A stretch of 64,000 bases of DNA from Dehalococcoidia bacterium (GCA_965243495.1 CBDEUZ010000007.1:1511743-1575742), one strand, 5' to 3'; shown: positions 9,450-48,700, counted from the first letter of the stretch. The notes: a model not told the origin generated them from the sequence alone. Program-made: numbers and translations.

Positions 9450-9504
9450 TGCCGCCACTTAGCGTTCACGCCGGAACGCGGCTTATCATCTCGATTGACT
9501 TGGC

Positions 9505-9540
9505 ATTGCCGGAACGCGAACTTGAGCCGTAGCGCAGCTA
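9505..9540. repeat. family-D REP-like element
   Basis: ggaacgcgaacttgagccgtagcgcagctaccgcc, between the convergent ada and MFS genes. Confidence 0.7.
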
Positions 9541-10800
9541 CCGCCTCACTCCCCGCAACTCCGGCAGCATAAGCCGTAAAACCATCACTACTACGAACCC
9601 CGTACCCGTCAGTAGCGCCAGCGCCATCTGAGGCCCAAGGTTCTCCGGCTCCGCCATCCATCCCACCGTCAGCATCCCCAGCGGACTCGCGCCGATGCCT
9701 AGCGCGATGGCGCCCATCGCGCGTCCCCGCATCTCCGGACTCACTGCTCGCAGCGCGATAGTTGGCTGCATCGTCGCAAACCCGGACATGCCCAGGCCTG
9801 CAACCATCAGGAGAACAAGAGAAACCGTGTACCACTCTGAAAGGGCGAAGAGCACCATGATTCCTAACATGAATGTCGAGCCCAGCGAATAGACCTGTCC
9901 ATGGTTGCGTATCTGTCGTGAGGCAATGATGATCGCACCCGTCAACGACCCCACGCCGGCCGCGCCTGCCAATACCCCATACAGAAAGGCGTTTGCGCCC
10001 AGCACGTCACGCCCGATCACTGGCACCATTGTCAGGAAGGGAAATCCGAAGAAGTTGAGGCTGACGGTGATTGTCAGGGCGGCTGCAAGAGCCCGGTTGG
10101 TGGCGAGCACCGTCACGGATTCCTTCAGTTGTCTAAGTACGGGCGTCTTTTCCGCGCCCATCGACTCAGTCCTGGGAATGGTGAAGAGAACCCAACCCGC
10201 CGCCACGTACAGGCCCAACATCAGCCCATACGAACCTGAGAAGTCAACCAACTCAATGATTGCCCCGGCGAAAAGCGGCCCCACGATGCTGCTGCCCGTG
10301 AGGGCCACAACATCCAGAGAGATGGCATTCGTCAGCGCGTCCCCGCGGAAAATCTCCGCGAAATAGGCGCGTCGCGCCGAGAAGTCCACCGCCCACGCTG
10401 AACCGGTAAGGAAAGTCGCCAGGTAAGCGTGCCAAGGCTCCACGTTTCCGCCTACTAGCACCGCGAGCATCCAGCCGACCACTGCCACGTTGAGGATTTG
10501 CGTTGAAATCATCACGTACTTGCGCGGAAAACGGTCTGACAAGCTGCCCGCTACAAGCCCAAGCAGGAACATGGGAGCCATCCGGAACACACCAACGAGC
10601 GCCACTTGCGACGGCGAGTCTGTCAGTTCAAGAACCAGCCATGACAGAACCGCCATCTCCATCATGCGGTTCATATACCAGATCCACCCCGCCATCCAAA
10701 GGCGGCGGAAGACAGGGTTGCGGAGCGAGCGGAATGTGCGGAAACGGTGCGAACGCTCGCGTCGCGCCGCTCGTTCAGTCGTAGATGGATTAATGCTCAT
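9538..10800 (-). CDS. MFS transporter
   Basis: 12 predicted TM helices and MFS-like loop motifs (…GSLSDRFPRKYV…). Confidence 0.8.
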   Translation of the reverse strand: MSINPSTTERAARRERSHRFRTFRSLRNPVFRRLWMAGWIWYMNRMMEMAVLSWLVLELTDSPSQVALVGVFRMAPMFLLGLVAGSLSDRFPRKYVMISTQILNVAVVGWMLAVLVGGNVEPWHAYLATFLTGSAWAVDFSARRAYFAEIFRGDALTNAISLDVVALTGSSIVGPLFAGAIIELVDFSGSYGLMLGLYVAAGWVLFTIPRTESMGAEKTPVLRQLKESVTVLATNRALAAALTITVSLNFFGFPFLTMVPVIGRDVLGANAFLYGVLAGAAGVGSLTGAIIIASRQIRNHGQVYSLGSTFMLGIMVLFALSEWYTVSLVLLMVAGLGMSGFATMQPTIALRAVSPEMRGRAMGAIALGIGASPLGMLTVGWMAEPENLGPQMALALLTGTGFVVVMVLRLMLPELRGVRR

Positions 10801-11746: not shown

Positions 11747-11947
11747 TCTTCGTCATTCCCGCGAAAGCAGGAATCCAGTGCCGCCCACAGGGCGGGCTAC
11801 CACCCCTGTCCACCTAAGCGGCTTCCCTGGTTCCCCCTGAGCCTGTGGAAGGGTGCCCCCATCATGTCGCCAAAGCCGGAACGGGGCGGAGAAACGCCAC
11901 AAATCAACCAACCCTGATCGCGAACTTAAGCCGTAGCGCAGCTACCT
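11747..11947. repeat. family-A and family-D REP-like elements upstream of otsA
   Basis: tcattcccgcgaaagcaggaatccagt at ~11749; gatcgcgaacttaagccgtagcgcagctacc at ~11917. Confidence 0.75.
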
Positions 11948-14296: not shown

Positions 14297-14983
14297 GTGA
14301 GGCAGACGGCTCTCAATTTCTTCTCGACCGATGCCCTGACGCTTGAAGGCATCATCGCCGAGCCGTCCGGTGAGGAAATTCCGGAAGGCGGTGGTGACCT
14401 CCCCGGCGTTGTCTTCTGTTCCCCGGAGCCGCACCTCGGCGGCACAATGCTCAGTCCCGTCGTTGAGGCGCTGACACGAGAAGTTACTCCCCGGGGCTTT
14501 GTCTCGTTTCGATTCAACTATCGTGGCGTTGGCGAATCCCAGGGTGAGAACGCCTTGGGGCAGGGACAGGTGTCAGATGCGCTCGCGGCTGTTGAAATGC
14601 TGCGGGAATGGCCGGGCGTCGATGGACAGCGAATCGGAATCGTTGGCTATTCATACGGCGCAAGTGTCGCACTGCGCGCCGCCGCCCAGCAGCCCGAAGG
14701 TGTCCGAGCCGTCGTCGCAGTCTCACCCATACTGGACATTCCCCTAATTGGCATTCCGAAAGAGGGCGGCCTGTCAAACGTAGAAGTCCCCGTGAGATTC
14801 CTCATCGGAGGCAATGATGCGCTCACAACCCCGGAAAACCTTGGTGCGTGGGTTGATGGAATCGGACGCGACGATGTGACCGCCATGGCGCTCGAAGGTG
14901 CAGACCGCGCATGGCAGACCAGCCGCCCCGCGTTGGCCGCTGCCACGGCTGGTTTCCTGGATGCAACAATGGCTCTCCGTTGA
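14297..14983 (+). CDS. alpha/beta-fold hydrolase (dienelactone-hydrolase-like)
   Basis: GXSXG nucleophile elbow (GYSYGA) in an alpha/beta-hydrolase-sized protein. Confidence 0.5.
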   Translation: MRQTALNFFSTDALTLEGIIAEPSGEEIPEGGGDLPGVVFCSPEPHLGGTMLSPVVEALTREVTPRGFVSFRFNYRGVGESQGENALGQGQVSDALAAVEMLREWPGVDGQRIGIVGYSYGASVALRAAAQQPEGVRAVVAVSPILDIPLIGIPKEGGLSNVEVPVRFLIGGNDALTTPENLGAWVDGIGRDDVTAMALEGADRAWQTSRPALAAATAGFLDATMALR

Positions 14984-15069
14984 CACGGAACGTCCCCGTA
15001 CCTACGATTTTCACCTGAGACGTTCACGATAAAAGAAGACGGACAAGCACAAGCAGGGAGGCAAACTAG

Positions 15070-15369
15070 ATGGGGACGTACGTGTTGCTCAGCACGCTGA
15101 CGGATGAGGGACGCAAGACCGTAAAGCATCGCCCCGAGCGGATCCAGGAAGTCAACCGCGAAATCGAGTCGTGGGGCGCAAAGGTCACCGCCCAGTACGC
15201 GGTGCTTGGCAACTATGACTTCGTCAACATTGTTGAGGCTCCCGACAACGAGACGATTGCCCGGGTTTCCCTTGAACTCGGCGCGCGAGGCACCATCCAG
15301 ATAGTCTCGCTGCCCGCATTCCCTATCGAGCAGTTCATCGCCCAACTCGCCCGCACCCGCGACGACTAG
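15070..15369 (+). CDS. GYD domain protein
   Basis: ~100 aa with …GNYDFVNIVEAPDNETIARVSLELGARG…, characteristic of the GYD family. Confidence 0.7.
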   Translation: MGTYVLLSTLTDEGRKTVKHRPERIQEVNREIESWGAKVTAQYAVLGNYDFVNIVEAPDNETIARVSLELGARGTIQIVSLPAFPIEQFIAQLARTRDD

Positions 15370-15399
15370 ACAATCCTTGCACGCTCATCCTGAGCCTGC

Positions 15400-15492
15400 C
15401 GAAGAATCCCCGTTCGCCCTGAGCGTAGTCGAAGGGGGCTCCCGAACGGGGAACCATGCATCGTCATTCCCGCGAAAGCGGGAATCCAGTGC
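15400..15492. repeat. family-B hairpin + family-A element
   Basis: ccccgttcgccctgagcgtagtcgaagggggctcccgaacgggga … cgtcattcccgcgaaagcgggaatccagt. Confidence 0.85.
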
Positions 15493-15497
15493 CTTCT

Positions 15498-16523
15498 TCA
15501 GGGCACAACGTCCCTCACGTAGCCCACATAGTCTGTAAACCGTCGCGGCGCAAACCCGAACGCTTGCTCAACCGAATCGAGCGCTGTCACGTTATCCACC
15601 CGCAGCTGGCTTAGCTCTGCGGCCGTGATCGGCGGATCCCGCAGCACGCGCCCCATCAGCGTCGCGCCAAATTGAATGATGGATCGCGGCATGGGTAGGC
15701 TGTAGACGCGCTTGATTCCAAGCTCCGTCGCAAATGCCCGTGCAATATCCACGAGTGCGATGTGCTCCGGCCCGCCGATTTCATACACGTGCCCCGCCCG
15801 CTCCGGTTCCGTCACGCACAGCGTCAGCGCCGCCGCAAGATCGCTCACGTACATCGGCTGCAACAACGTCCGCCCCCCGTCGGGGAACGGCAGCAGGGCC
15901 ACCGGCCCCGTCCGTAGCAGCTTGACCGTCCGACGCGACACGGCATCGGAAACCCCTAGCACCAGCGACGGCTTCACCACCGTCCAGCCCAGCCCGCTGT
16001 TCCTAACCGCATCCTCCGCTTGCCAACGCGACCGCCCGTACGGCATCTCCGGGTCATCGGAGGCTCCAAGAATCCCCAGATAGATGAGGCGGTTTGTCCC
16101 CACGTCCTTCATGGCGTCGATGAGCGACTGTGTCGTGCCCACGTTCGTATCACCAAATGAACGCCCCTCGGTCTCGCGGATGATGCCAACCGCGTGGACG
16201 ACGACGTCCGCGCCGGAAACTGCCCCTCGCACCGCGTTCCAGTCCCGCGCGTCACCCTCGATGACCTCAACCGACTCACGTAGGACGGCCTCGCCGCGAT
16301 CGGCACGGTCGCGCGCGGCCACAACATCCTCACGGGTCAGCTTGCCGATATTCACGAGCGTTTCGATGGCGTCGAACGCAACTGCAAGCGACCGCCGCCC
16401 ATCACTGAACACTCTTTCCGGCGAGCGGGACAGCACACGGATCGGCCCGTGGCCCGCAGCCACCAGTGTCGCCACAAGGTGCCGCCCCACAAACCCCGAC
16501 CCACCCAGAACCGTAACCCTCAT
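15498..16523 (-). CDS. NAD(P)H-binding SDR-like / NmrA-like oxidoreductase
   Basis: Rossmann motif VTVLGGSGFVGRHL at the N-terminus. Start taken at the internal ATG (MRVTV…). Confidence 0.6.
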   Translation of the reverse strand: MRVTVLGGSGFVGRHLVATLVAAGHGPIRVLSRSPERVFSDGRRSLAVAFDAIETLVNIGKLTREDVVAARDRADRGEAVLRESVEVIEGDARDWNAVRGAVSGADVVVHAVGIIRETEGRSFGDTNVGTTQSLIDAMKDVGTNRLIYLGILGASDDPEMPYGRSRWQAEDAVRNSGLGWTVVKPSLVLGVSDAVSRRTVKLLRTGPVALLPFPDGGRTLLQPMYVSDLAAALTLCVTEPERAGHVYEIGGPEHIALVDIARAFATELGIKRVYSLPMPRSIIQFGATLMGRVLRDPPITAAELSQLRVDNVTALDSVEQAFGFAPRRFTDYVGYVRDVVP

Positions 16524-16639
16524 CAATGACCTCTTTCGCTCTACACGCGCTCTTATTGCCAGTCTAACTGCGCCCCCACTCGTCATTCTGGCCGCAGGCC
16601 AGAATCTGATGCACATTGAATAATCCAACACCTTTTAGC

Positions 16640-17140
16640 AATAGACCTGAATTGCATGTCATTCCGAGCGCAGCCGAGGAATCTAAAGCCGCATTACGCG
16701 AACCTAAGCCGTAACGCAGTTACTTCCATCGCCCCGCCTGCGCCCACATTCGTCATTCCCGCGAAAGCGGGAATCCAGTGCGGCGCGAAGCGCCGTCTTT
16801 GTCATTCCGAGCGCAGCCGAGGAATCTAAAGCCGCATTGCCCACCCATGCCGGAACGCGGCATTCCAACTCCGCAGGCCAATCACCGCCGGATCGCGAAC
16901 CTAAGCCGTAACGCAGTTACCTCCATTGCCCCGCCTACCACCTATTCGTCATTCCCGCGAAAGCGGGAATCCAGTACGGCGCACAGCGCCGTCTCTGTCA
17001 TTCCGAGCGCAGCCGAGGAATCTAAAGTCGCATTACGCCAACCACCGCCTAAGCGCCAACCAAAATCCGTAACGCCCCCACGCTCACCCTGAGCTTGTCG
17101 AAGGGCGAGCCGTAACGCAGTTACCTTGCCCCGTATATTC
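16640..17140. repeat. cluster of REP/MITE-like palindromic elements (families A, C, D and B-like)
   Basis: Family A (tcattcccgcgaaagcgggaatccag) near 16752 and 16947. Family C (gtcattccgagcgcagccgaggaatctaaag) near 16657, 16801, 16997. Family D (cgcgaacctaagccgtaacgcagttac) near 16697, 16891. A B-like unit near 17077. Confidence 0.85.
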
Positions 17141-17211
17141 GCCCAATGCTATTCTCGCCGCGTGCGCGGAAAGGCCGCGCGCGAATGGGGATAAAGGGAA
17201 GGGTGGCAAAT

Positions 17212-18090
17212 ATGGCCGACTATGAAAACATCCTGTATGAGAAGCAGCGCAAAGGCGTACTGATAACGCTCAACAGGCCGGAGCGGCTGAACGCCATCAG
17301 CCCCGACCTCGAGCGGGAACTCCACGAGGCGCTCGATGAAGCCGAGGCCGATCCTGAGGTTCGCGCCATCGTGCTGACCGGAGCGGGCAGGGCATTCTCC
17401 TCCGGCTATGACATATCCGGCGAAGCCGAATTCGAATGGCCGTACGCGCTTCCGAAGAACACAAGTGTGGCGGCGCATCTCGACCACTGGCGCACGTCGG
17501 ACCGCAAGAACATGCGCTATTTTCTGCACCTTTGGGAGCTGACCAAGCCCGTCATTGCGGCAATCAACGGCTGGTGCATGGGTGGCGGCTCCTGGTACGC
17601 CAACGCGGCCCACATGACCATCGCCGCCGAGGATGCCGTGTTCGCGCAGCCGGAAGTTCGCCACATGGACAACACCAGCTTCTTCTGGGTCCTTAATGCC
17701 GGCTATAAGAATGCCCTTCGCTACGCGCTCACGGGCGACCACATCGATGCGCAGGAAGCTCTCCGCATCGGCATCGTCAACACCATCGTGCCGCCGGAAG
17801 ATCTGATTGATGAGGCATTCAAGATTGTTGAGCGCATTGCGCTGGTCTCTCCGGAGACGGTGAAGATCAACCTCTACGTCGCCACGATGGGACTGGAGAT
17901 GATGGGTCTGCACAATGCCCTGAACCTGAACGCGGAACTGTCCGCCCACGCCCACACCTCCGTGAGCGAGGAGGGCCGCCGTCCCTTCGTAGAGGCGCAA
18001 ATAGAAGGTGGTCTCCGCGGCTACCTCCAGGCCCGTGACGGCCCATTCCAACCGGAGCCCTTCGGCCCGCGTTCTAAGCCGCGAGAGTAA
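17212..18090 (+). CDS. enoyl-CoA hydratase/isomerase family protein (crotonase fold), paralog 1
   Basis: …ITLNRPERLNAIS…LTGAGRAFSSGYDI… crotonase motifs. RBS GGGAAGGGTGG before the ATG. Confidence 0.8.
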   Translation: MADYENILYEKQRKGVLITLNRPERLNAISPDLERELHEALDEAEADPEVRAIVLTGAGRAFSSGYDISGEAEFEWPYALPKNTSVAAHLDHWRTSDRKNMRYFLHLWELTKPVIAAINGWCMGGGSWYANAAHMTIAAEDAVFAQPEVRHMDNTSFFWVLNAGYKNALRYALTGDHIDAQEALRIGIVNTIVPPEDLIDEAFKIVERIALVSPETVKINLYVATMGLEMMGLHNALNLNAELSAHAHTSVSEEGRRPFVEAQIEGGLRGYLQARDGPFQPEPFGPRSKPRE

Positions 18091-18123
18091 ATCTAACTAA
18101 CGCAGAAAGGAGCAACCAAAACG

Positions 18124-19014
18124 GTGCCCAACTACGAATACGTCCTGTACGAAAAGCAGCGCAAGGGCGCGCTCATCACACTGAACCGCCCTGAAGCCCT
18201 GAACGCGATCAGCCCGCAGATGGAGGATGAACTCCACTTGGCGCTCGATGAGGCCGAGGCGGATCCCGAGGTTCGCGCCGTCGTTCTGACTGGAGCGGGC
18301 AGGGCATTCTCCGCCGGCTACGACCTGGGAGCGCCGGATGCCCCCATGCGCGAGTTCGTTTGGCCCTACGGCGTCGCGCCCGGCCAGAGCGTTGCCGAAC
18401 TGCTGGATTCGTGGCGCACAAACGACAACGCCGGTGTCCGCAAGCTCCTCCACATGTGGGAGTTGACGAAACCTGTCATCGGCGCAATCAACGGCTGGTG
18501 CATGGGCGGCGCGTCCTGGTATGCCACCGCAACCCACATGACGCTCGCCTCGGACCAAGCCGTGTTCGGACAGCCGGAAGTACGCCACATCTCCAACACC
18601 AGCTTCTTCTGGGTGCTGTCCGCAGGCTACAAGAACGCGCTGCGCTATTCGCTGACCGGCGACCACATCGACGCCGAGGAGGCGCTGCGTATCGGCATCA
18701 TCAACAAAATTGTCCCGCACGAGGACCTGCTTGATGAAGCATTCAAGCTTGTTGAGCGTATCGCGTTGGTCTCGCCGGAGACGGTCAAGATCAACCTCTA
18801 CGTCGCCACGATGGGCCTTGAGATGATGGGCCTTGCCAACGCGCTCAAACTCAATGGGGAACTCTCCGCACTGGCCCACTCCTCAAGTCGTGAGGACTAC
18901 CGTAAGGAGATGTTCGATGGCCTCGAGCAGGGCGGACTCCGCTCGTTCCTCACAGTGAGGGACGGCCCGTTCCAGCCGGAGCCCTTTGGCCCCCGCTCGA
19001 AAGTCAGAGACTAA
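18124..19014 (+). CDS. enoyl-CoA hydratase/isomerase family protein, paralog 2
   Basis: Highly similar to paralog 1 (MPNYEYVLYEKQRKGALITLNRPEALNAIS…). Confidence 0.8.
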   Translation: MPNYEYVLYEKQRKGALITLNRPEALNAISPQMEDELHLALDEAEADPEVRAVVLTGAGRAFSAGYDLGAPDAPMREFVWPYGVAPGQSVAELLDSWRTNDNAGVRKLLHMWELTKPVIGAINGWCMGGASWYATATHMTLASDQAVFGQPEVRHISNTSFFWVLSAGYKNALRYSLTGDHIDAEEALRIGIINKIVPHEDLLDEAFKLVERIALVSPETVKINLYVATMGLEMMGLANALKLNGELSALAHSSSREDYRKEMFDGLEQGGLRSFLTVRDGPFQPEPFGPRSKVRD

Positions 19015-19103
19015 TCCTGTCCGTCATTCCCGCGAAAGCGGGAATCCAGAACCCAAAGAACAAACCAACCAGAACAGAGCAGACAAGGAAAGAGAGGAAA
19101 GAA

Positions 19104-19985
19104 ATGGCCGACTACGAAAACATCCTGTATGACAAGCAGCGCAAAGGCGTGCTTATCACACTGAACCGCCCCGAGGCCCTGAACGCGCTCAGCCGCGACC
19201 TCGAAGACGAACTGCACGTTGCGCTTGACGAGGCGGAGGCGGATCCCGAGGTTCGCTACATCATCCTCACCGGTGCCGGCCGTGCGTTCTCGGCGGGCTA
19301 CGATATCGCCGGTGGCCGCGCCCCAACCGTCTGGCCGTACGGTCTGCCGGAGGGCACGAACATCGCCCAGATGCTGGATGACTGGCGCACGCGTGACAAG
19401 CCGGATCGATTCATGCACCTCTGGGAGCTCACCAAGCCCGTCATCGCCGCCGTTAACGGCTGGTGCATGGGTGGAGGCTCCTGGTACGCGCTCTTCTCGC
19501 ACATGACGTATGCGTCCGATACCGCCGTGTTCTCGCAGCCTGAGGTCCGCATGATCTCCAACACCAGCTTCATTTGGACGCTCAACGCGGGCTACAAGCA
19601 CGCACTGCGTTACAGCCTCACCGGCGACCACATCGACGCTGAAGAAGCGCTCCGCATTGGCATCATCAACCAAATCATCCCGCAGGACGACCTTATTGAA
19701 GAGTGCTTCAAGATTGGCGAGCGCATCGCTCTGGTGTCCCCGGAGACTGTGAAGATCAACCTGTACGTCGCGACCATGGGCCTCGAGATGATGGGCCTGC
19801 GCAACGCGCTCATTCTCAACGGCGAACTCTCCGCCTTCGCCCACGCCTCCAAGCGTGAGGACGTAATGCGGCCATTGGAACAGGCACGTGAAGAGGGCGG
19901 AATGCGCGGCTTCCTCCAGCAGCGCGACGGTCCCTTCCAACCGGAGCCCTTCGGTCCCCGCTCAGCCGCCGCCCGCGGCAACTAA
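19104..19985 (+). CDS. enoyl-CoA hydratase/isomerase family protein, paralog 3
   Basis: MADYENILYDKQRKGVLITLNRPEALNALS…; a tandem paralog. Confidence 0.8.
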   Translation: MADYENILYDKQRKGVLITLNRPEALNALSRDLEDELHVALDEAEADPEVRYIILTGAGRAFSAGYDIAGGRAPTVWPYGLPEGTNIAQMLDDWRTRDKPDRFMHLWELTKPVIAAVNGWCMGGGSWYALFSHMTYASDTAVFSQPEVRMISNTSFIWTLNAGYKHALRYSLTGDHIDAEEALRIGIINQIIPQDDLIEECFKIGERIALVSPETVKINLYVATMGLEMMGLRNALILNGELSAFAHASKREDVMRPLEQAREEGGMRGFLQQRDGPFQPEPFGPRSAAARGN

Positions 19986-20057
19986 CGTTTAGCCGCCAAT
20001 CGAAGGAAAGGCATGGGCGGCCAACAGGCCGCCCATGCCGTCTTTTCCGCCCTCCAA

Positions 20058-20375
20058 CTCGTCATTCCCGCGAAAGCGGGAATCCAGTACGACGCACAGC
20101 GCCGTCTCCTCCCCGTTCGCCCTGAGCCTGTCGAAGGGGGCTCCCGAACGGGGACCTGACCCAACTCGTCATTCCCGCGAAAGCGGGAATCCAGTATGGC
20201 GCACAGCGCCGTCTCCTCCCCGTTCGCCCTGAGCCTGTCGAAGGGGGCTCCCGAACCGGGACCTGGCCCACCTCGTCATTCCCGCGAAAGCGGGAATCCA
20301 GTACGACGCACAGCGCCGTCTCCCCCCGTTCGCCCTGAGCGTAGCGAAGAATCCAAAGCCGCATTGCGCAAATCA
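20058..20375. repeat. 3x tandem composite REP-like array (unit ~100 bp: family A + linker + family B hairpin)
   Basis: ctcgtcattcccgcgaaagcgggaatccagtacgacgcacagcgccgtctcc…ccccgttcgccctgagcctgtcgaagggggctcccgaacgggga repeated three times at ~20058, 20163 and 20269. Confidence 0.9.
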
Positions 20376-20388
20376 AATGCGGTAACGT

Positions 20389-21065: not shown

Positions 21066-21150
21066 GCAATCTCCCCGTTCACCCTGACACTGTCGAAAGT
21101 CCCCGTTCGCCCTGAGCGTAGTCGAAGGGGGTTCCCGAACGGAGAAACCT
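21066..21150. repeat. family-B REP-like elements (1.5 copies) at the left island border
   Basis: ccccgttcaccctgacactgtcgaaag + ccccgttcgccctgagcgtagtcgaagggggttcccgaacgg. Confidence 0.8.
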
Positions 21151-22761
21151 TCCCCCACTTACGCCAACGACATTCATAACAGGCCCGCTGAGAGCCATTT
21201 CCGTGGAATCGACGGGGCCGATGGGGCTATCGTCGGGCATCGGAATCGTGTAGGCAATGCTGGCTTTCCCGGGACTGATTCGGATTTCTTTGACGAACGA
21301 CCGGATGAAAGCCTTGGTCTCGGTCAACTCGCTGGTCTTGAGGAATTCACCCATTTCTCTCGCGTGGGCTGCGATTGTTTCGACCTTATCCAGGATCACC
21401 CGTCGCTCTGCAAGGGCGGTTCGGGCTTCCTCGGCTGCTATTTCCAGTTGCGCCTTCCGTTCTCGGTGTGTCGCGATGCGTTCGGACGCGTCCGACATCT
21501 CAATGGTCGCCGTTTCGATGGCCTCCAAGATCCGGTCCAATCTCTGCTTCAGGTCCGCGAGCTCGCTTTCGATGGTCGCAAGACGCTCGCGCTCCTCTCT
21601 CGCCATGCCGTCCATCTCCTCATCCAGCAACCGCACCAATCCCCGCACGTTCTTCTCGCTCAGGATGTTCTCGCGGATCTGGTCGATGATGAGGCGTTCG
21701 AAGCGCTTTGAGTTCAGGCGTGGGCAATCGCAGGTCCCGCTGCCCCGCTTGAGGAGCGATTGGCACACGTAATACGTATACCGACCGCCCTTGGCTTCAG
21801 AGGCCGATAGCGGCCTGCCGCAGTTGTCGCACGTGACAAGGCCACTGAGCACGTAAGGGCTGGAGGCTCGCATCGGGTGAATCACTTTCGGTGAGCGCGA
21901 CCCAAGGAGTTTGTTGACGCGCCGATACTCCTTAGCAGTCACGATTGCAGGGAATGCCCCCTCAACCCGGACGGGCGGCGCGCCGTCCTTGGCCGTGATA
22001 CCCCAGACCAGCGTGCCCGTATGGACTTCATTCGTCAGGATCACGTGGATTGTGTTCTTGGGCCACGTCTTGCCCCTCGGCGATGGGATACCCTCACTGT
22101 TGAGTGTCTTGGCAATCTCCATCGTTCCACGCCCCTTGAGCGCCATGTCGAAGATGCGGCGAACGATGGGCGCGGCGGACTCATCGAGTTCGAGCTTCGG
22201 CCTCTTCTTTGCGCCGTCCTGCACCAAAACGCGCCGGTAGCCGAATGGTGCATGAGGGCTCACCCAGAAGCCGCGTGACGCCGCCTCGCGCATCCCGCGC
22301 GTCACTTCCTGGGCGAGATTCTCCGAGTAGAACTCATCGACGCTCTCGATGATGGCCTCCATGAGCTTGCCGGTCGGAGTGTCGTCGGCGTGCTCTGTGA
22401 TGGAGACGACCCTGATGCCTCGCCTGCGCAGCATTGCCTTGAATGCGACGGCGTGTTCGCGCTTCCGGGTGAATCGCGAGAACTTCCAGACAAGGATTTC
22501 CTTGAACGGCGCGTTCGGCGAGCTCGCCTCGTCGAGCATCTTGCGGAACTGGGGCCGATCCGCGATGCGCCCACTCTCCGCCTCATCGATGTACTGCCGT
22601 GCGACGATATAGCCGTTCTTGTCGGCATAGTCCCGCAGTGCCCTCAACTGCGCCGCGACGGACAAGTCTACATCCTGCCGGTCACTGGAGACGCGGGCAT
22701 AGAGGGCGGCGGTCGGCAGTTGTTCCTGTTGTTGGGATTCCTTCTTCTGCTTGCCTTTCAT
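21079..22761 (-). CDS. large serine recombinase (resolvase N-domain + recombinase domain + Zn ribbon + coiled coil)
   Basis: N-terminal resolvase catalytic region (AALYARVSSDRQ…), a Cys4 zinc ribbon (CDNCGRPL…C…C), and coiled-coil-like C-terminal helices. The C-terminal tail runs into a family-B repeat. Confidence 0.8.
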   Translation of the reverse strand: MKGKQKKESQQQEQLPTAALYARVSSDRQDVDLSVAAQLRALRDYADKNGYIVARQYIDEAESGRIADRPQFRKMLDEASSPNAPFKEILVWKFSRFTRKREHAVAFKAMLRRRGIRVVSITEHADDTPTGKLMEAIIESVDEFYSENLAQEVTRGMREAASRGFWVSPHAPFGYRRVLVQDGAKKRPKLELDESAAPIVRRIFDMALKGRGTMEIAKTLNSEGIPSPRGKTWPKNTIHVILTNEVHTGTLVWGITAKDGAPPVRVEGAFPAIVTAKEYRRVNKLLGSRSPKVIHPMRASSPYVLSGLVTCDNCGRPLSASEAKGGRYTYYVCQSLLKRGSGTCDCPRLNSKRFERLIIDQIRENILSEKNVRGLVRLLDEEMDGMAREERERLATIESELADLKQRLDRILEAIETATIEMSDASERIATHRERKAQLEIAAEEARTALAERRVILDKVETIAAHAREMGEFLKTSELTETKAFIRSFVKEIRISPGKASIAYTIPMPDDSPIGPVDSTEMALSGPVMNVVGVSGGRFLRSGTPFDYAQGERGLSTVSG

Positions 22762-39812: not shown

Positions 39813-40394
39813 GTGACTACCGGCTCTTACTATGTCTACGCATTGAAGGATCCTACTTCATCTCCGGCAAGGGCATTCTATGTCGGAAAAGGGACGGGTA
39901 GCAGGGCTCACGATCATCTCATAAGGCCAGACAAGACGCGAAAGTATGCTCGCATCAAGGAAATACTGGACGCTGGGCATGAGCCTCTGGTCGACATTCT
40001 GATCGATGGCTTGTCGGAGACCGACGCACTACGTCTGGAAGCAGAGCTCATCGCTGGTTTCGGGACAGAAGAAACTGGAGGGGTCCTGACCAATTCCGTC
40101 GTTCCCAGCGGGATAGTTTCCGGGGCGAAGTCTCGGATAGTTGTTCCTGAAGGTGCAGTTGAGCAAGCTCAAATGGGGCTGACTATGCTTATGAGATCTG
40201 TTGCAAAGTTGATTGAGGTAAATCCTCAGGGCGCCACGAATGCTGAAGTCGCAAGTAGCTTAGGGCTTCGAAGCGATTATGAGGGGAAACAGAAGGACTA
40301 CCTGTCCTATAGTCTCCTAGGCCTGTTGCTGCGTGAAGGGCGAATTTTCCGCGACGACCGCACCAAGCGGCACATCTCGACTAGATTCGTGTAA
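39813..40394 (+). CDS. GIY-YIG nuclease-domain protein with C-terminal wHTH-like domain
   Basis: YYVYAL…FYVGKG…R…H pattern of the GIY-YIG superfamily. AGGAGG RBS 7 nt before the GTG. AT-richer. Confidence 0.5.
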   Translation: MTTGSYYVYALKDPTSSPARAFYVGKGTGSRAHDHLIRPDKTRKYARIKEILDAGHEPLVDILIDGLSETDALRLEAELIAGFGTEETGGVLTNSVVPSGIVSGAKSRIVVPEGAVEQAQMGLTMLMRSVAKLIEVNPQGATNAEVASSLGLRSDYEGKQKDYLSYSLLGLLLREGRIFRDDRTKRHISTRFV

Positions 40395-40426
40395 AGGACT
40401 CAGTTGGCTGCCCTCTTTGTCACAAT

Positions 40427-40473
40427 TCCACCTCCAAAACGAACGTTCGCAATGAAGCCAATGATCTGCCACC
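40427..40473. repeat. 47-bp direct repeat, copy 1 (tccacctccaaaacgaacgttcgcaatgaagccaatgatctgccacc)
   Basis: Matches 44172..44218 with one mismatch. Confidence 0.9.
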
Positions 40474-40623: not shown

Positions 40624-43600
40624 CTAGCTCCCGCTTACCCAGCGCACACCTTCGGGCAGACGAGGCCAAGCGACTAGAGTGCCGTCTGTGGTAATAGCCA
40701 GCGTGTGATTGGTACGGACCACAATGCTCCGGTATTCCCCGTCAGGAGGACTGGTTCTGCGGCCTCGCTCGTTGCCCCAGCACACAACGGTGTTGTCGGT
40801 TGCTACCGCGCAGGTGTGAAACTCGCCCATGCTTACGCTCTGATAGGTTCCAGCAGGTCCGTCGGTCTGGCCGTGCTTGTTGTATCCCCAGCAGGAAATG
40901 GTGTCATCAGTTGTAATGGCGCAGGTGTGGTACTTGCCGGCGCTGACATTCTTGTAGGCGCCAACGGCCGCGCGCGCCTTGCCGTCCTGATTATTGCCCC
41001 AGCAGGCGACGCTGCCATCCGTGGCCACGGCACAGGAGTGGTCGTCACCGGCGCTGATGCTCTGGTACGTCCCTGTAGGCGCGTTTGTCTGGCCCTTCCG
41101 GTTGTCTCCCCAACAGATAATGGCGTCGTCGGTGGCAATGGCGCAGGTGTGTGCCGAGCCAGCGGATAGCGCCTTGTATGTGCCCGTGGGCGCAATGGTG
41201 CGGCCGTTTGCGCTGAGTCCCCAACAGGCAACGGCGTCGTCGGTTCCGATGGCGCAGGTGTGGTCATCGCCGGCCACAATGCTCTGGTACGTACCAGAGG
41301 GAGCGTTGGTTTGACCGTGTCCACCATATCCCCAGCAGGCAATGGTGTCGTCGGTTGCGATGGCGCAGGTATGGTCGTAGCCGGCAGCCAATTGCTTGTA
41401 GGCGCCCGCCGGAGCGTCGGTCTGGTCAAACTCGTCATATCCCCAGCAGGAAATTGTGCCGTCACTGGCGATGGCGCAGGCATGTTCATAGCCCAGTACA
41501 GCGGATTCGAACGTGCCGGAGGGCGTGTCGGAGCGGGCGTCAATATTCCATCCCCAGCACTTGACCGTGCCGTCTGTCGCAATGCCGCACGTGTAATTGC
41601 TAGCAAGAGCCGTGGCCTTGAAGGCGCCCGACGGTGATTCGGCTTGACCGTCGGCGTTAGTCCCCCAGCAGGAAACTGAGTCGTCGGTTGCGATGGCACA
41701 GGTGTGATTGCGTCTCGCGACGATACTTTTGTAGGTTCCCCCAGGCGCATTGGTCTTGCCACTGCCGCTATCACCCCAGCAGGCAATGGTGCCGTCGGTG
41801 GCGATGGCGCAGGTGTGGTATTCGCCCGCGCTTATGCTCACGTAGGAGCCCGCAGGCGCTCGGGTTTGCCCCCTGTTGTTCATTCCCCGGCAGATTACCG
41901 AATCATCACTCTTTATAGCGCAGGTGTGAACGAAGCCGGCCGTGACCGCCTTGTACGTGCCGGACGGGAAATTGCCCTCCCCGTGATCATTCAGACCCCA
42001 GCAGGAGATGGTGTCGTCAGTCTTGATGGTGCAGGTGTGCTCCCAACCGATGGCCATCGACTTGTAAGTACCGGCGGGCGATGCGTTCTGGGCGAAGCTG
42101 TGGTATCCCCAGCAGGCAATCGTGTCGTCAACAGCGATGGCGCAAGAGTGTCGGGAGTGCGATGCGATGGCCTTGAATGTACCTGCCGGAGGAGTGGCCT
42201 GATTGAATGTGTTCCAGCCCCAACAATCGATTGAACCGTCTGTGGCGATGGCACATGTGTGAACGCTTCCTGAAGCCAACGCTTTGTAAGCACCTGCAGG
42301 CGGGTCGATTTGACCTCGATGGCCTTCTCCCCAGCAATGGAGCGATCCGTCGGTGGCGATACCACACATGTGGAAGGAACCGCCGCTCAACTCCACGAAA
42401 GTGCGTTCCGGGTTAGTGGATGCCAGTAATGTCGCGGGATCGGATAGCGCTACCACTGTCCCTGTTGCGCTGCTGGTCAGGCTCTCCGAATACCCGTCGT
42501 CGTCGGTAAAGCTGACCTGCACCTTAATGGTCTTCCCCTGGTCATCGTCGGTGAGAGTGTAGGTCTGCCCGGTGGCCCCGGGGGTGTTCGTGTCCGAGCC
42601 GCTATCACTGCGTATCCACTGGTAGGTGTACTGCGGGTTTGAGAGTCCGTTTCCATCGCTGATTCCTGAGGTGTCGGCAGTCAGCGTCTCACCCACCTGC
42701 TCTGTGCCCGTGATGGTTGGCAGGCCGGTGGGTGTTTCGTTAGTCGGAGTGGGATCCGCCGGCGTGGTGAACCTCGCTGCTGGTTGGGACCACTCGCTCA
42801 GCCCGTGGGCGTTACGGGCCTTAACCCGGTACCGGTACGTGGTCTCCGGCGCCACGGTCGTGTCCGTGTAACTGGTGACTGAACTGCCCGTGTCGTCCTC
42901 GATGACATCGAATACGCCGGAGTCGTGGATTGCAGGGTTCCGCCTGAGCACCTGGTACCCCGTGATGCTGGTGTCCCCGGGGTCATCCCACGCAATTGTG
43001 ACTGAGTTGTGTGCGACGGATTCAATGGTGGGACGTGACGGCGTCGCCGGTGGCGCAATCGTCGGGGCTACTGTGGCGGGATTGTTCTGAGGAGTCTCTC
43101 CGCCACTACTCCCCCCTACGGCAGAGGTTACTGATGCAGTGGCAGCGCTGGTCAGCGACTCCGAATACCCTCCCTTATCGACAAAGTCCACGCGTACCTT
43201 GATGGTGTTGCCCTCGTCGGCTGCCACAAGGGTGTAGCCGGAGTCCGTGGCGCCCGTGATAACGGTGTCTGTGCCTCCGCTGCTTGAGATCCACTGAAAG
43301 CGGAACTGTACTCGGTCCAGCCCGTTGCCGTCCGTAATGGCCCCCGTATCTGCCGTCAGGGTTTCTCCGACTTCCGGCGTGCCGCTAATGACGGGAGTGC
43401 CGGTGGCCGCCACGTTGTCAGGTCTGGGCTGTCGGCCTTGCTCAAACTGAGTCGTGGAGGCCATTTGATAGAAGGCAGACCAGTCCGAGGTCCCGTGAGC
43501 ATTCCTTGCCCGAACCTGGAACCAGAGCGTGGCGGTTGGATCGAGTTCGCTGATTATGGCTCCCGCCCCGTAGAAGGCGATCTCAACGCCGTCTCCCGGC

Positions 43601-43983
43601 AAGTCAGTCCATTGGCCATTTCGGTACAACTGGACGTCGTAGGAATCGGCGCCCGTCACATCGTTCCACTGCAGGTCGACGCCCCCTATGAAGACGGCAG
43701 TTCCGGTAGGTTTGTTTGGAGTGTCCGGAGTTGAACCTTGGGCAGACACGGTTAAGGCGCTGGCAAGCAGAGCGATTAGTACCGACAGGAAGACCACCAG
43801 CAGCATGGCCGGATGAGTCGACGGACGGACAATCGGGCTGGCCTGCCCCGATGCTTCCCGGTCCGTCCGTTGCGCCTTTTCTGTTCTCGTATGCATGTCT
43901 TGGTGGTTACTCAGCAGAGACCCGCCCTCAACGTGCGTTCCTGTAGCTGCTCGATTAGCTACGAAACAGTTGTGAAAACACAA
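40624..43983 (-). CDS. secreted/surface protein: signal-anchor + 2 fibronectin-III-like domains + ~17 RCC1-like (CWG) beta-propeller repeats
   Basis: Hydrophobic segment MLLVVFLSVLIALLASALTVSAQG (the true start may be the ATG at 43806 or 43896). Two ~90-aa FN3-like modules. Tandem 37-38-aa repeats of HTCAIATDG(T/S)I(A/S)CWG.N..GQ…P.GTY.S. Confidence 0.6.
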   Translation of the reverse strand: MCFHNCFVANRAATGTHVEGGSLLSNHQDMHTRTEKAQRTDREASGQASPIVRPSTHPAMLLVVFLSVLIALLASALTVSAQGSTPDTPNKPTGTAVFIGGVDLQWNDVTGADSYDVQLYRNGQWTDLPGDGVEIAFYGAGAIISELDPTATLWFQVRARNAHGTSDWSAFYQMASTTQFEQGRQPRPDNVAATGTPVISGTPEVGETLTADTGAITDGNGLDRVQFRFQWISSSGGTDTVITGATDSGYTLVAADEGNTIKVRVDFVDKGGYSESLTSAATASVTSAVGGSSGGETPQNNPATVAPTIAPPATPSRPTIESVAHNSVTIAWDDPGDTSITGYQVLRRNPAIHDSGVFDVIEDDTGSSVTSYTDTTVAPETTYRYRVKARNAHGLSEWSQPAARFTTPADPTPTNETPTGLPTITGTEQVGETLTADTSGISDGNGLSNPQYTYQWIRSDSGSDTNTPGATGQTYTLTDDDQGKTIKVQVSFTDDDGYSESLTSSATGTVVALSDPATLLASTNPERTFVELSGGSFHMCGIATDGSLHCWGEGHRGQIDPPAGAYKALASGSVHTCAIATDGSIDCWGWNTFNQATPPAGTFKAIASHSRHSCAIAVDDTIACWGYHSFAQNASPAGTYKSMAIGWEHTCTIKTDDTISCWGLNDHGEGNFPSGTYKAVTAGFVHTCAIKSDDSVICRGMNNRGQTRAPAGSYVSISAGEYHTCAIATDGTIACWGDSGSGKTNAPGGTYKSIVARRNHTCAIATDDSVSCWGTNADGQAESPSGAFKATALASNYTCGIATDGTVKCWGWNIDARSDTPSGTFESAVLGYEHACAIASDGTISCWGYDEFDQTDAPAGAYKQLAAGYDHTCAIATDDTIACWGYGGHGQTNAPSGTYQSIVAGDDHTCAIGTDDAVACWGLSANGRTIAPTGTYKALSAGSAHTCAIATDDAIICWGDNRKGQTNAPTGTYQSISAGDDHSCAVATDGSVACWGNNQDGKARAAVGAYKNVSAGKYHTCAITTDDTISCWGYNKHGQTDGPAGTYQSVSMGEFHTCAVATDNTVVCWGNERGRRTSPPDGEYRSIVVRTNHTLAITTDGTLVAWPRLPEGVRWVSGS

Positions 43984-44171
43984 TTGTAAGGATTTGGTGT
44001 GAGTACATCGTTAAATCAGCGGCCTTTTGCGCAGAAATTACTGTGATTTTGGCGTAAAGAGGGACATATGCCGCCGATTATCCAGAAATCCCTCAACCAG
44101 GCGTCGATTAGAGTGGCGGGAAATGAAGAGGCTCGCGGGGTCAATCGAGTGCGCCTGACCGCCCCCTACAA

Positions 44172-44218
44172 CTCCACCTCCAAAACGAATGTTCGCAATG
44201 AAGCCAATGATCTGCCAC
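44172..44218. repeat. 47-bp direct repeat, copy 2
   Basis: tccacctccaaaacgaatgttcgcaatgaagccaatgatctgccacc; it directly abuts a family-A REP element. Confidence 0.9.
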
Positions 44219-44350
44219 CGTCATTCCCGCGAAAGCGGGAATCCAGTTCGGCGCATAGCGCCGTCTCTGTCATTCCGACTGCACCCCCATGTCATTCCGA
44301 GCGCAGTCGAGGAATCTAAAGACTCCATTGCGCCACCCCCGCCCGTCTTT
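44219..44350. repeat. REP-like cluster (A + C fragment + C)
   Basis: gtcattcccgcgaaagcgggaatccag then gtcattccgagcgcagtcgaggaatctaaag. Confidence 0.85.
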
Positions 44351-44392: not shown

Positions 44393-45274
44393 ATGCCCAA
44401 CTATGAGACCGTCCTCTATGAAAAGCAGCGCAATGGCGTACTCATCACGCTGAACCGACCCGAAACACTGAACGCCATCAGCCGCCAGTTGGAGCGCGAT
44501 GTCTCCGAGGCGCTAACTGAAGCGGAGAACGACCCCGAGGTCCGCGCCATCGTCCTCACAGGCGCAGGTCGCGCCTTCTCTTCCGGTTACGACATCGGCG
44601 CAGGCCGCGGTGAAACCGTCTGGCCGTATGGACTCCCCGAAGGCACGAGCGTCGCCGCCATCCTCGACGACTGGCGCGACCGCTCCCGAGATGAGACGGC
44701 CAAGCTGCTTCAGATCTGGGAACTCACCAAGCCTGTCATTGCCGCCGTCAACGGCTGGTGCATGGGTGGCGGCTCCTGGTATGCCCTCGCCTCCCACATG
44801 ACATACGCTGCCGAGGAAGCCGTCTTCGCCCAGCCCGAGATCCGCATGATCTCCAACACCAACTTCTTCTGGACCCTCAACGCCGGCTACAAGCACGCCA
44901 TTCGCTACGGCCTCACAGGCGACCACATCGATGCACAAGAAGCGCTACGCATCGGCCTGGTTAACGGCGTCGTCCCCGGTGATGATTTGCTTGAACACTG
45001 CTTCCGCGTCGTCGAGCGCATCGCCCTCGTCTCGCCTGAGACGGTCAAGATCAACCTCTACGTCGCCACCATGGGCCTCGAGATGATGGGACTCCGCAAC
45101 GCGCTCGTCCTCAACGATGAGCTGTCAGCCCACGCCCAGAGCTCGCAACGCGAAGACTTCAAGCGCGAAATGATGGACGCCCAGAAAGAGGGCGGCCTCC
45201 GCGCATTCCTCCAAGTGCGTGACGGCCCCTTCCAGCCGGAACCCTTCGGCCCCCGCTCCCGCGTTAGGGAGTAG
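44393..45274 (+). CDS. enoyl-CoA hydratase/isomerase family protein, paralog 4
   Basis: MPNYETVLYEKQRNGVLITLNRPETLNAIS…; closely related to the 17.2-20.0 kb triplet. Confidence 0.8.
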   Translation: MPNYETVLYEKQRNGVLITLNRPETLNAISRQLERDVSEALTEAENDPEVRAIVLTGAGRAFSSGYDIGAGRGETVWPYGLPEGTSVAAILDDWRDRSRDETAKLLQIWELTKPVIAAVNGWCMGGGSWYALASHMTYAAEEAVFAQPEIRMISNTNFFWTLNAGYKHAIRYGLTGDHIDAQEALRIGLVNGVVPGDDLLEHCFRVVERIALVSPETVKINLYVATMGLEMMGLRNALVLNDELSAHAQSSQREDFKREMMDAQKEGGLRAFLQVRDGPFQPEPFGPRSRVRE

Positions 45275-45393
45275 TTGCCATAGAAGCCCTACAATGGTAG
45301 GGCAAGCGGGGGTAGCGAACCCTCTGTCATTCCCGCGAAAGCGGAAATCTAGACTACGATTGGCACGCTAAGCTGGTAAGCAAACCGGAGCGG

Positions 45394-48020: not shown

Positions 48021-48700
48021 CGCCCCTCCGTCATTCCCGCGAAAGCAGGAATCCAGAATCCCCTCGGTGCCCTCCGCTCCCCCTGAGCCTGTCGAAGGGT
48101 CGCCCCTCCCCAAATCATACCCTGCCAGAATCCCCTCCCCCCCTCGACGAGGGAGGGTTAGAGAGGGGGTGACCCCATCGCCCATCTTGGACCCGCCGAA
48201 AGGTCACGGTTCGCCCTGAGCTTGTCGAAGGGGGCTCCCGAACGGGAACCTAGTCACGCCTCCCCATTCGTCATTCCCGTGAAAACGGGAATCCAGTGCG
48301 ACGCGCAGCGCCGCCTCCCACCATCATCCCGACCACACCCCTGTCATTCCGAGCGCAGTCGAGGAATCTAAAGACTCAATTCCGTCCCCAATCCGGTAAC
48401 AATCCCCGTTCGCCCTGAGCTTGTCGAAGGGGGCTCCCGAACGGGAACCTAGTCACGCCTCCCCATTCGTCATTCCCGTGAAAACGGGAATCCAGTGCGG
48501 CGCACAGCGCCGCCTCCCACCGTCATCCCGACCACACCCCTGTCATTCCGAGCGCAGCCGAGGAATCCAAAGACTCAATTCCGCAGCCAACCCCGTAAAG
48601 CCACTCAAATATCCCCTCCCCTTCGATGGGGGAGGGTTAGGGAGAGGGTGACCCATCCGTCATTCCGGCGCAGGCCGGAATCCACCCCGTGGCCCGCTAG
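48021..48700. repeat. ~680-bp cluster of REP-like elements (families A, B, C, E) in the glmS upstream/divergent intergenic region
   Basis: A at ~48035, 48265, 48463, 48655 (variants tcattcccgtgaaaacgggaatccag). B at ~48200 and 48404. C at ~48345 and 48541. E (ccctccccttcgatgggggagggttagggagagggtga) at ~48140 and 48612. Confidence 0.85.

Follow-up and report, generated by a model that had tools for sequence, protein, structure and literature searches.

The 28-nt Neisseria Transformation Sequence (NTS), CGTCATTCCCGCGMAVGCGGGAATCYRG, contains the 20-bp dRS3 repeat (Chenal et al. 2025, Nat Commun, PMC11893778). The NTS and the degenerate Ssn-related motif (SRM), HGTCWYN(0-2)YYVSBRHN(0-5)WNVSBRGN(0-2)RNCYNB, form hairpins with a GNRA-type loop, a fixed GTC head and a C tail, which are the targets of the nuclease SsnA, a 94-aa single-domain GIY-YIG protein (cd10448) (PMC11893778). 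SsnA binds the hairpin only as single-stranded DNA (ssDNA) and on one strand only, cuts a few nucleotides upstream of it and does not bind RNA, and its activity is abolished when the sequence of the palindrome is changed with the structure kept (PMC11893778). Homologs of ssnA are typically flanked in the layout SRM-> gene <-SRM, and 19% of SRM-rich genomes are without an Ssn homolog (PMC11893778). So far, the Ssn/NTS system has been studied in Neisseria as a modulator of transformation. The dRS3 repeat is also a described target of phage recombinase, and in the NIME arrays it bounds repeat units of 50-150 bp. Here we describe a 64,000-nt stretch from a Dehalococcoidia bacterium (GCA_965243495.1 CBDEUZ010000007.1:1511743-1575742; hereafter the window), in which short repeat modules, including a frequent 28-nt element called A, are arranged in mosaics. 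With a probability of about 0.6, we read them as an intergenic mosaic of short ssDNA hairpin repeats in a chromosome of this Chloroflexota class, as a counterpart of the Neisseria NIME arrays and as substrates of an Ssn-like nuclease.

Element A

By its sequence, element A (TCATTCCCGCGAAAGCGGGAATCCAG) is a hairpin already known, the NTS/dRS3/SRM of the Ssn nucleases. Eight copies in the window agree with the NTS consensus at every position, and the SRM pattern fits 11 true copies (shuffle mean 0.68), all on the + strand; one extra SRM match at 63451 is probably a chance hit, and the minus strand of the window has no SRM. The flanks of the palindrome, GTC before and C after, are invariant in 10/10 aligned copies, and the element includes ATTCCCGCGAAAGCGGGAAT, that is, the dRS3 pattern ATTCCC-N8-GGGAAT. 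Variant inner stems (CCGGC/GCCGG and CTGGCC/GGCCAG) resemble other SRMs beside Ssn genes. The identification of A as an Ssn hairpin points to a specific mechanism at the ssDNA level and moves the comparison from generic REP elements to the NIME and Ssn systems.

A collection of species-representative genomes has the exact 27-mer of A in at least 120 stretches, which come from more than 15 phyla. Among the matches listed, its hosts are Proteobacteria, candidate phyla radiation (CPR) bacteria, Planctomycetota, Nitrospirota, Acidobacteriota, Bacteroidota, Actinomycetes and a Rickettsia endosymbiont, as well as ~10 metagenome-assembled genomes (MAGs) of Dehalococcoidia. An inverted SRM lies within 150 nt downstream of 59/128 non-Chloroflexota copies, and upstream of only 5, compared to 2/14 copies with an inverted partner in Chloroflexota loci and 0/13 in the window. 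The geometry of these NTS doublets mirrors that of the SRMs around Ssn genes: among 80 metagenomic loci with an Ssn homolog, 50/79 have an SRM in the orientation of the gene no more than 300 nt upstream, and 47/78 have an inverted SRM downstream. At two loci with Ssn genes, L040 and L041, whose proteins are single-domain PF01541 of ~92 aa, the layout SRM-> gene <-SRM can be seen at single-nucleotide resolution.

Hairpins are also found nested within the loop or arm of an NTS, namely the 24-nt GTCCCGTA...TACGGGAC in the A copy at 50778-50829 and an E-like sequence in the NTS of locus L118. This fits the published finding that the loop tolerates extensions (PMC11893778).

Repeat families and composite units

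An initial reading of the window from the sequence alone (the sequence-only reading) proposed at least five families, A to E, at twelve or more intergenic sites. The recurrence itself stands and extends to at least seven short families at 14 sites (Table 1); 13 of the sites are intergenic and one lies in frame within bacA, and E is matched exactly only once in the window. With up to 3 mismatches allowed, the 64 kb hold 13 copies of A, 4 of B, 6 of C, 3 of D and 1 of E, and dinucleotide shuffles give 0 matches for each of the five at the same threshold. When the definitions are relaxed (repeat search and motif scripts), the counts are 16 SRM-like hairpins, 7 C, 8 D and 3 E-like copies, and for B 6 full copies plus variants and chimeras. 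The further families are A2, a hairpin directly 3' of A with 10 copies, and F (GCCGGAACGCGGC), with 5 copies. The interval 16640-20375, which had been marked as the repeat system, consists mostly of three paralogous enoyl-CoA hydratase (ECH) genes, and the repeats near it are confined to 16581-17124, 19022-19049 and 20060-20382.

The modules recur in the order pyrimidine-rich linker, A, A2, (E), B or C, TAAAG..., F, ATTCCAAC..., GATCGCGAAC, D, with D at the 3' end of each unit; the recurrence suggests that they form a composite of ~200-230 bp, which often occurs truncated. Tandem unit periods were obtained with Tandem Repeats Finder, which reported 2.7 copies of a 107-bp period at 20054-20340 with 95% matches, and 1.9 copies of a 199-bp unit at 48209-48583. 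The three-copy 107-bp array is a tandem duplication of the three-hairpin composite A+A2+B and not a CRISPR, because its 79-nt 'spacers' are 95-96% identical to one another (copy 2 is 96% identical to copy 1) and no cas gene or domain was found among the window open reading frames (ORFs) scanned; the 'spacers' are themselves hairpin modules. The sequence-only reading, which had noted the near-identical segments at ~100-bp spacing, is borne out in rejecting a CRISPR. Its description of the array as a tandem of composite miniature inverted-repeat transposable elements (MITEs) holds for the composite tandem and fails for the MITE in this window, given the absence of minus-strand SRMs and terminal inverted repeats, and of target-site duplications in the aligned spacers. 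It did not connect A with the NTS, nor did it remark on the constant strand or on the turnover between relatives.

A and C have a common GTCATTCC head, as had been pointed out and as direct comparison confirms. C keeps the head and tail of an SRM (GTC-ATTCC...GGAAT-C) around a B-type core, GAGCGCAGCCGAG, and B/C chimeras are joined at the common core (Table 1). The C/B-type form can be written as stem-GAGCGNAGCGAAG-stem with a GNA-type mini-hairpin at the apex, the C type having an SRM-like GTCA head and a TC tail. D is a GTAG/GTAA...CTAC/TTAC palindrome. C-type hairpins (GTCATYCTGAGCGNAGCGAAGRATC) and B-type cores (CCCTGAGCYTGTCGAAGGG) are present in loci of Nitrospirota, CPR, Pseudomonadota and Dehalococcoidia and, among the matches listed from a viral collection, in viral contigs. 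The habits of the C type are NTS-like, with inverted doublets that have variant partners, and with an upstream half-site, a 10-20-nt pyrimidine-rich linker and then the full hairpin.

The succession of half-site, 8-22-nt pyrimidine-rich linker and full hairpin recurs for NTS, C-type and B-type hairpins in unrelated genomes. It is found in the window at 44269-44321, 48323-48373 and 48522-48572, elsewhere at L059, L104, L069, L086, L105, L018 and L024 and in spacers of L121 and L122, and in the viral loci L212, L218, L220, L230, L243 and L257. Hairpin processing or nested insertion could have left this architecture as a scar.

Folding of the modules

The proposal that most families form hairpins holds for A and B, and A2 and F likewise fold well (z -2.7 to -4.9 for the four), with C and D being marginal under the DNA energy model. 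As ssDNA, the predicted energies are -9.0 kcal/mol for A (z -4.5), -9.1 for A2 (z -4.9), -13.5 for B (z -2.7), -6.4 for F (z -2.9), -9.2 for E (z -1.4), -1.9 for C and -1.5 for D (both z about 0), and -26.3 kcal/mol for the 107-nt array unit (z -3.6). The DNA mini-hairpins d(GCGAAAGC) and d(GCGNAGC) are said, after Hirao and Yoshizawa, to be exceptionally stable, and standard energy parameters under-rate both. The apex of A is GCGAAAGC and that of C-type copies is GCGNAGC with variable N, matching these forms. Compensatory double changes were found at one pair in A (CG to UA, 2 copies), at three pairs in A2 and at one pair in D (GC to AU, 3 copies).

One-strand orientation and replication

All 44/44 matches of strand-specific motifs (regex) are on the + strand, and the modules keep this strand between convergent, divergent and tandem gene pairs alike. 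The GC skew at third codon positions (GC3 skew) of the coding strand is -0.25 for + genes and +0.25 for - genes; because it flips sign with the gene strand, the + strand is C-rich whatever the direction of transcription. The + strand is A-rich as well, and lagging strands usually show this combination of C and A richness. In independent Dehalococcoidia loci with |skew| above 0.07 (L049, L035, L009 and L020) the modules are always on the C-rich strand, and in Dehalococcoidia loci with skew near zero their orientation is mixed. From the skew, we infer that module orientation follows replication.

Relatives, turnover and coding consequences

Three loci, L121, L122 and L123, are syntenic with the window over BacA, GlmS, tRNA-Gly, ECH4, isochorismatase, ECH3, ECH2, ECH1 and epimerase. 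They carry 6, 8 and 0 modules, respectively, all on the same strand as in the window. The NTS between ECH2 and ECH3 is kept in position in three genomes (window, L121 and L122) and is degenerate in L123. The ECH3-isochorismatase spacer, which holds the 3x(A+A2+B) array in the window, is empty in L121 (70 bp) and in L122 has an SRM variant together with a half-site and an NTS. The epimerase-ECH1 spacer measures 580 bp in the window versus 165-241 bp in the relatives, where it has no module, E-like sequence only, or C+B. Since aligned spacers differ between relatives in this way, modules come, go and multiply at fixed hot spots over short evolutionary times. The routes of change are local tandem duplication of 107-, 196- and 199-bp composites, B/C recombination at the GAGC..CGAAG core, and nested or partial copies. 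Neither target-site duplications, which the sequence-only reading had proposed to look for, nor inverted termini were found where filled and empty spacers could be compared with the relatives, the bacA site included.

The modules also enter coding sequences. The bacA/uppP gene (49780-50769) contains an in-frame mosaic of 195 nt (65 codons) in a loop between transmembrane segments; the Pfam BacA match covers residues 6-313 of the 329-aa ORF, and the BacA proteins of the relatives have 263-268 aa. In the alignment, the place of the insertion is empty in L121 and L123 and holds one in-frame B hairpin, in the same loop, in L122. Spurious ORFs from repeats had been noted in the sequence-only reading, and two cases confirm them. 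An apparent 55-residue N-terminal extension of GlmS (...LDSCFRGNDGG; first ~165 nt, 48021-48185) is repeat-encoded, the true start being MCGI at residue 56 of the ORF. The C-terminus of a serine recombinase (...PFDYAQGERG..., last ~25 codons) comes from the repeats at 21075-21146 on the opposite strand. The best named relatives of GlmS are proteins of Dehalococcoidia or Chloroflexi MAGs, and the close relatives, whose contigs are L121, L122 and L123, are 94, 92 and 86% identical. The SRM-like variant at 16581-16609 lies upstream of the true epimerase start, because the protein of the relatives has 341 aa versus the 377-aa ORF here.

Islands, cassettes and neighbouring genes

Between isochorismatase and ECH4, the window holds a 23-kb island of lower GC (21079-44167; GC 0.52-0.56) without repeat modules, which none of the three syntenic relatives has. 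Its products are a large serine recombinase (21079-22761), an AAA_15/AAA_21 ATPase, a Replic_Relax protein, a ThsB-like TIR protein, a cluster of AIPR, DUF4420, Z1, HATPase_c_3 and C-5 methylase genes, a 193-aa GIY-YIG protein and an RCC1-repeat protein, and it appears to be a mobile defence island inserted within a module cluster. The 193-aa protein (39813-40394), with the N-terminal GIY-YIG motif YYVYAL...FYVGKG, was rejected as an Ssn candidate: its architecture differs, with a LEM-3-like domain (PF22945, E 1.3e-6) and an unassigned C-terminal domain, and it lies inside the foreign island. It adjoins one copy of a 52-nt direct repeat (40422-40473 and 44168-44219, 96% identical), which brackets a 3.7-kb segment with a 1119-aa RCC1/fn3 repeat protein (40624-43983) that has 111-nt tandem coding repeats. 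The right copy of the 52-nt repeat abuts the NTS at 44219, and duplication and nested insertion are candidate origins.

At the place of the island, L121, the closest relative, has a different single gene (14862-16125; 329 aa, no Pfam match, secreted-looking), with direct copies of a C/B-type module (CACGTCACCCTTAGCSCGCCGAAGAATC) on either side. Module clusters coincide with the entry sites of foreign gene cassettes. Between glmS and bacA, the window has a gene for a protein with AbiJ N-terminal domain 4 (48898-49716), which is absent from L121 and L123 and replaced in L122 by a CAP12/PCTIR TIR protein, so that a variable defence-gene slot adjoins the largest module cluster. The four paralogous ECH genes (63-78% DNA identity) are located at 17212-19985 and 44393-45274; their array is kept in all relatives and is broken by isochorismatase and, in the window, by the island.

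Table 1. Repeat modules and associated hairpins of the window, numbered from its first nucleotide
Feature	Position	Strand	Remark
F	9470-9482	+	between convergent genes
D	9514-9541	+	between convergent genes
A, 1 mismatch	11751-11778	+	fairly complete single unit 11751-11945
A2 variant, compensated stem	11779-11796	+	unit 11751-11945
B variant	11830-11860	+	unit 11751-11945
F	11875-11887	+	unit 11751-11945
D	11916-11945	+	unit 11751-11945
B/C chimera	15382-15409	+	site 15382-15507
B	15410-15449	+	site 15382-15507
A	15462-15489	+	site 15382-15507
A2 variant	15490-15507	+	site 15382-15507
SRM-like variant hairpin CGTCATTCTGGCCGCAGGCCAGAATCTGA	16581-16609	+	GTCA head and GAATC tail kept; inner stem differs, compensated
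Mosaic, ~2.5 copies of 196-bp unit	16658-17124	+	C, D, A, A2, C, F, D, A, A2, C, B-variant, D
C in mosaic	16658-16688; 16801-16831; 16997-17027	+	
D in mosaic	16696-16723; 16891-16920; 17103-17124	+	
A in mosaic	16751-16778; 16947-16974	+	
A2 in mosaic	16779-16796; 16975-16992	+	
F in mosaic	16849-16861	+	
B-variant in mosaic	17082-17110	+	
A singleton, exact NTS	19022-19049	+	between ECH genes 2 and 3
Intrinsic-terminator-like hairpin after ECH3	20010-20039	+	13-bp stem, then T run; not a repeat family
A, exact NTS, array copy 1	20060-20087	+	
A2, array copy 1	20088-20105	+	
B, array copy 1	20113-20151	+	outer stem CCCCGTTCG/CGAACGGGG, inner core CCCTGAGCCTGTCGAAGGG
Array copy 2	20167-20258	+	A 20167-20194, A2 20195-20212, B 20220-20258
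Array copy 3, diverged	20274-20382	+	A 20274-20301, A2 20302-20319
B/C chimera, array copy 3	20327-20358	+	B 5' half and C-type 3' half, joined at common GAGCG..CGAAG core
Tail hairpin CCGCATT..AATGCGG, array copy 3	20359-20382	+	
Degenerate B and full B (21103-21142)	21075-21146	+	left island junction
A	44219-44246	+	right island junction
A2	44247-44264	+	right island junction
C half-site and linker	44269-44289	+	right island junction
C	44291-44321	+	right island junction
Degenerate A, 2 mismatches	45325-45352	+	upstream of tRNA-Gly
Largest cluster	48029-48685	+	two copies of 199-bp unit inside
A	48029-48056	+	largest cluster
B variant	48076-48106	+	largest cluster
E-like	48133-48172	+	largest cluster
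B in 199-bp units	48207-48245; 48406-48444	+	
A with compensated stem CCCGT/ACGGG in 199-bp units	48269-48296; 48468-48495	+	followed by A2, C half-site
C in 199-bp units	48343-48373; 48542-48572	+	
E	48613-48651	+	largest cluster
SRM variant CCGGC/GCCGG	48658-48685	+	largest cluster
D singleton, GTAGCGCAGCTAC type	49717-49744	+	
In-frame mosaic in bacA/uppP	50030-50222	+	B-type half-sites, full B cores, F 50146-50158, D variant 50187-50218
A with 24-nt hairpin nested in loop/3' arm	50778-50829	+	site 50778-50992
E	50833-50870	+	site 50778-50992
C variant	50871-50900	+	site 50778-50992
F	50920-50932	+	site 50778-50992
D variant	50961-50992	+	site 50778-50992

Discussion

In the preferred reading, the modules would act as ssDNA rather than RNA, being substrates of an Ssn-like nuclease that is encoded elsewhere in the genome or was supplied formerly. 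Nicks in the pyrimidine-rich linker upstream of each hairpin could lead to the duplication, deletion and recombination of modules. Two routes to the one-strand rule can be envisaged: selection may keep the cleavable strand on the leading-strand template, which is rarely single-stranded, and off the lagging-strand template, or copies may be installed as ssDNA into the nascent lagging strand.

Several results weigh against this explanation. The cd10448-type gene that accompanies SRMs in the Ssn system is missing from the DNA searched: regex, tblastn probes and hmmsearch --max with a three-sequence profile detected no ssn in the 64 kb of the window or the three 21.8-kb syntenic loci (66 kb), although the probes recovered the real GIY-YIG genes of L040 and L041. 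At E<=1e-10 there are at least 7,963 Ssn homologs, most of which lie on very short contigs, and none of the best 120 of them bears a Dehalococcoidia label. The only Chloroflexota-labelled Ssn, that of L040, could be mis-binned, because its MAG contig measures 7.5 kb and the protein shares 66-70% identity with proteins of Proteobacteria. For B, C, D, E and F there is no demonstrated link to Ssn: C-type or B-type hairpins occur in 0/79 and 1/78 of the Ssn-gene flanks at the 80 metagenomic loci, and 2.1 Mb of viral loci carrying C or B contain no Ssn-like ORF. Moreover, a single enzyme may not accept C and the variant SRMs as substrates, because palindromes with changed sequence and kept structure are inactive with SsnA (PMC11893778).

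The link to replication meets difficulties of its own. It is drawn from GC and AT skew, the window contains no origin, and most native genes would be on the inferred lagging strand, which is unusual. In the syntenic region, the strand-referenced GC3 skew (-0.22 and -0.35 in the window, -0.24 in L122, -0.07 in L121 and ~0 in L123) tracks module number, and its magnitude differs unexpectedly between relatives. Across all phyla, NTS orientation shows no relation to the GC skew of the whole locus (45 vs 48); this comparison is uninformative because most copies are in symmetric doublets.

A broader alternative, to which we give a minor but appreciable chance, is a community of ssDNA hairpins polarised by the replication strand, in which the Ssn site would be only one member. 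The C/B type would then be a second, undescribed cross-phylum family with its own strand-specific enzyme, and the one-strand rule would come from installation or tolerance on one replication strand only. A search for other genes in the layout hairpin-> gene <-hairpin gave nothing consistent for the C type and only ssn for the SRM.

It is somewhat less probable that the modules are orphan relics, that is, hairpins from horizontal transfer or past activity that are shuffled only by slippage or homologous recombination, with neither enzyme nor function. Such an origin would agree with the missing ssn gene, with the 19% of SRM-rich genomes that have no Ssn homolog (PMC11893778), and with L123, which has lost the modules or never had them; tandem duplications, chimeras and half-sites are also the products expected of slippage or recombination at hairpins. 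However, the 28 nt are the same in eight copies, distant phyla have copies of the identical 27-mer, and stems show compensatory changes, all of which speaks for selection that is still active or for recent spread, and not for neutral decay. The strand rule, which is strict at 14 sites and in independent genomes, is likewise difficult to reconcile with relics.

Doubtful, and less probable again, is a REP/BIME-REPIN system moved by a RAYT (an IS200/IS605-like Y1 HUH transposase) encoded elsewhere, in which D would be the true REP and the other modules BIME-like linkers. D does start with GTAG or GTAA, is palindromic with a compensatory stem change and ends each composite unit, and one-strand orientation is to be expected from ssDNA transposition of the IS200/IS605 type. 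However, no RAYT/TnpA Y1 transposase was found among the window ORFs scanned, neither inverted REP doublets (REPINs) nor BIME-like alternating orientation is seen, D folds weakly, and the dominant, best-conserved module is the Ssn-type hairpin instead of D.

A role as RNA elements, for example as mRNA stabilisers, attenuators, terminators or small RNAs, which has been suggested for some REPs, is very unlikely. The hairpins have stable GNRA-type loops, A2 has a few G-U-compatible cells, and many copies are just upstream or downstream of genes. Nevertheless, the modules stay on the + strand whatever the direction of the flanking gene, so that they would be sense in some transcripts and antisense in others, and their insertion inside a coding sequence is tolerated. 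At the gathering threshold Rfam finds only tRNAs in the window, and nothing credible at E<=1 in two repeat clusters, so that a known RNA family was rejected. The modules have no T tracts or terminator signature. A terminator role, which the sequence-only reading had suggested checking, was rejected as well: the consensus scan flags no module and only the hairpin at 20010-20039, a separate, non-repeat element that marks the left edge of the insertion space of the array and is kept in all three relatives. The constant strand, the lack of Rfam matches and terminator signatures, and the inactivity of SsnA on RNA make an RNA role unlikely. Finally, a degenerate or mimic CRISPR array at 20054-20375, suggested by the regular spacing of a 28-nt palindromic repeat that presumably looks loosely like type I-E repeats, can be discarded with near certainty on account of 'spacer' identity, 'spacers' made of hairpin modules, the lack of cas among the ORFs scanned and the singletons of the 28-mer at many other sites.

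The identification of A as an Ssn hairpin explains a class of spurious 'hypothetical proteins', with peptides such as VIPAKAGIQ and LDSRFRGND, as well as false gene extensions in annotated MAGs, and recognising it avoids CRISPR miscalls of such arrays. Module clusters may mark recombination hotspots in genomes without classical mobile elements at those sites, and the B and C families point to the existence of one or more further hairpin systems that are widespread and have no known enzyme. Should the strand rule follow replication, there would be a direct link between a strand-specific ssDNA nuclease site and fork asymmetry.

Comparison with known systems

The closest known system is NTS/SRM-Ssn with NIME-like mosaics, as far as sequence and structure tell; the gene association was not found within the DNA searched. 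The likeness lies in the 28-nt NTS consensus of A, in its hairpin with GTC head and C tail, and in multiple copies clustered around genes. The differences concern the host, a Dehalococcoidia-class member of Chloroflexota, a group absent from the main text of PMC11893778, and the configuration: the window copies are co-oriented singletons on the C-rich strand (0/13 with inverted partners vs 59/128 in other phyla), are in a fixed order with other hairpin families and form tandem composites, and no ssn is present in the window or the syntenic loci. The 28-mer of a Neisseria system is thus found in a free-living Chloroflexota lineage in a different configuration.

As in the NIMEs, the dRS3 pattern bounds repeat segments, of 79 nt in the 107-bp array and ~170 nt in the 196- and 199-bp units, and the intergenic arrays adjoin variable gene content and an integrated element. 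The window differs in its phylum and in having all copies on one strand, and its intervening modules presumably have no sequence in common with the Neisseria RS units. Among other repeats, the literature on the B and C cores gave a single match, the 36-bp Bpu element, a short interspersed repeat in the mitochondria of cycads and Ginkgo (Chaw 2008, PMC8297867). The 16-nt core CCTGAGCGTAGCGAAG (20333-20348, in a B/C chimera) is common to the window and the Bpu consensus, and Bpu elements are likewise short, hairpin-capable and, with hundreds of copies, numerous; however, they belong to seed-plant organelle genomes and carry terminal direct repeats of AAGG. Convergence on a stable GNA-loop mini-hairpin may explain the match, which is taken as a lead and not as homology.

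The in-frame mosaic of bacA recalls the Rickettsia palindromic elements (RPEs), which also insert in frame into intact protein genes. RPEs are single units of ~100-150 bp, compared to the module mosaic in bacA, and we know of no sequence relation between the two. REP/BIME and REPIN-RAYT elements of Proteobacteria are similar in being mosaics of short extragenic palindromes with many copies and spurious ORF calls, and D has a GTAG-type head. In contrast to them, the window has no alternating or inverted arrangement and no RAYT among the ORFs scanned, and its main module belongs to a GIY-YIG system, not an HUH system. Overall, the system is more like Neisseria NIME or enterobacterial BIME mosaics than a MITE with terminal inverted repeats. 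What is new here, compared to the published systems, is the co-oriented singletons on the C-rich strand, the tandem composites, the companion families, the Chloroflexota host, the in-frame tolerance in bacA and the coincidence with cassette sites.

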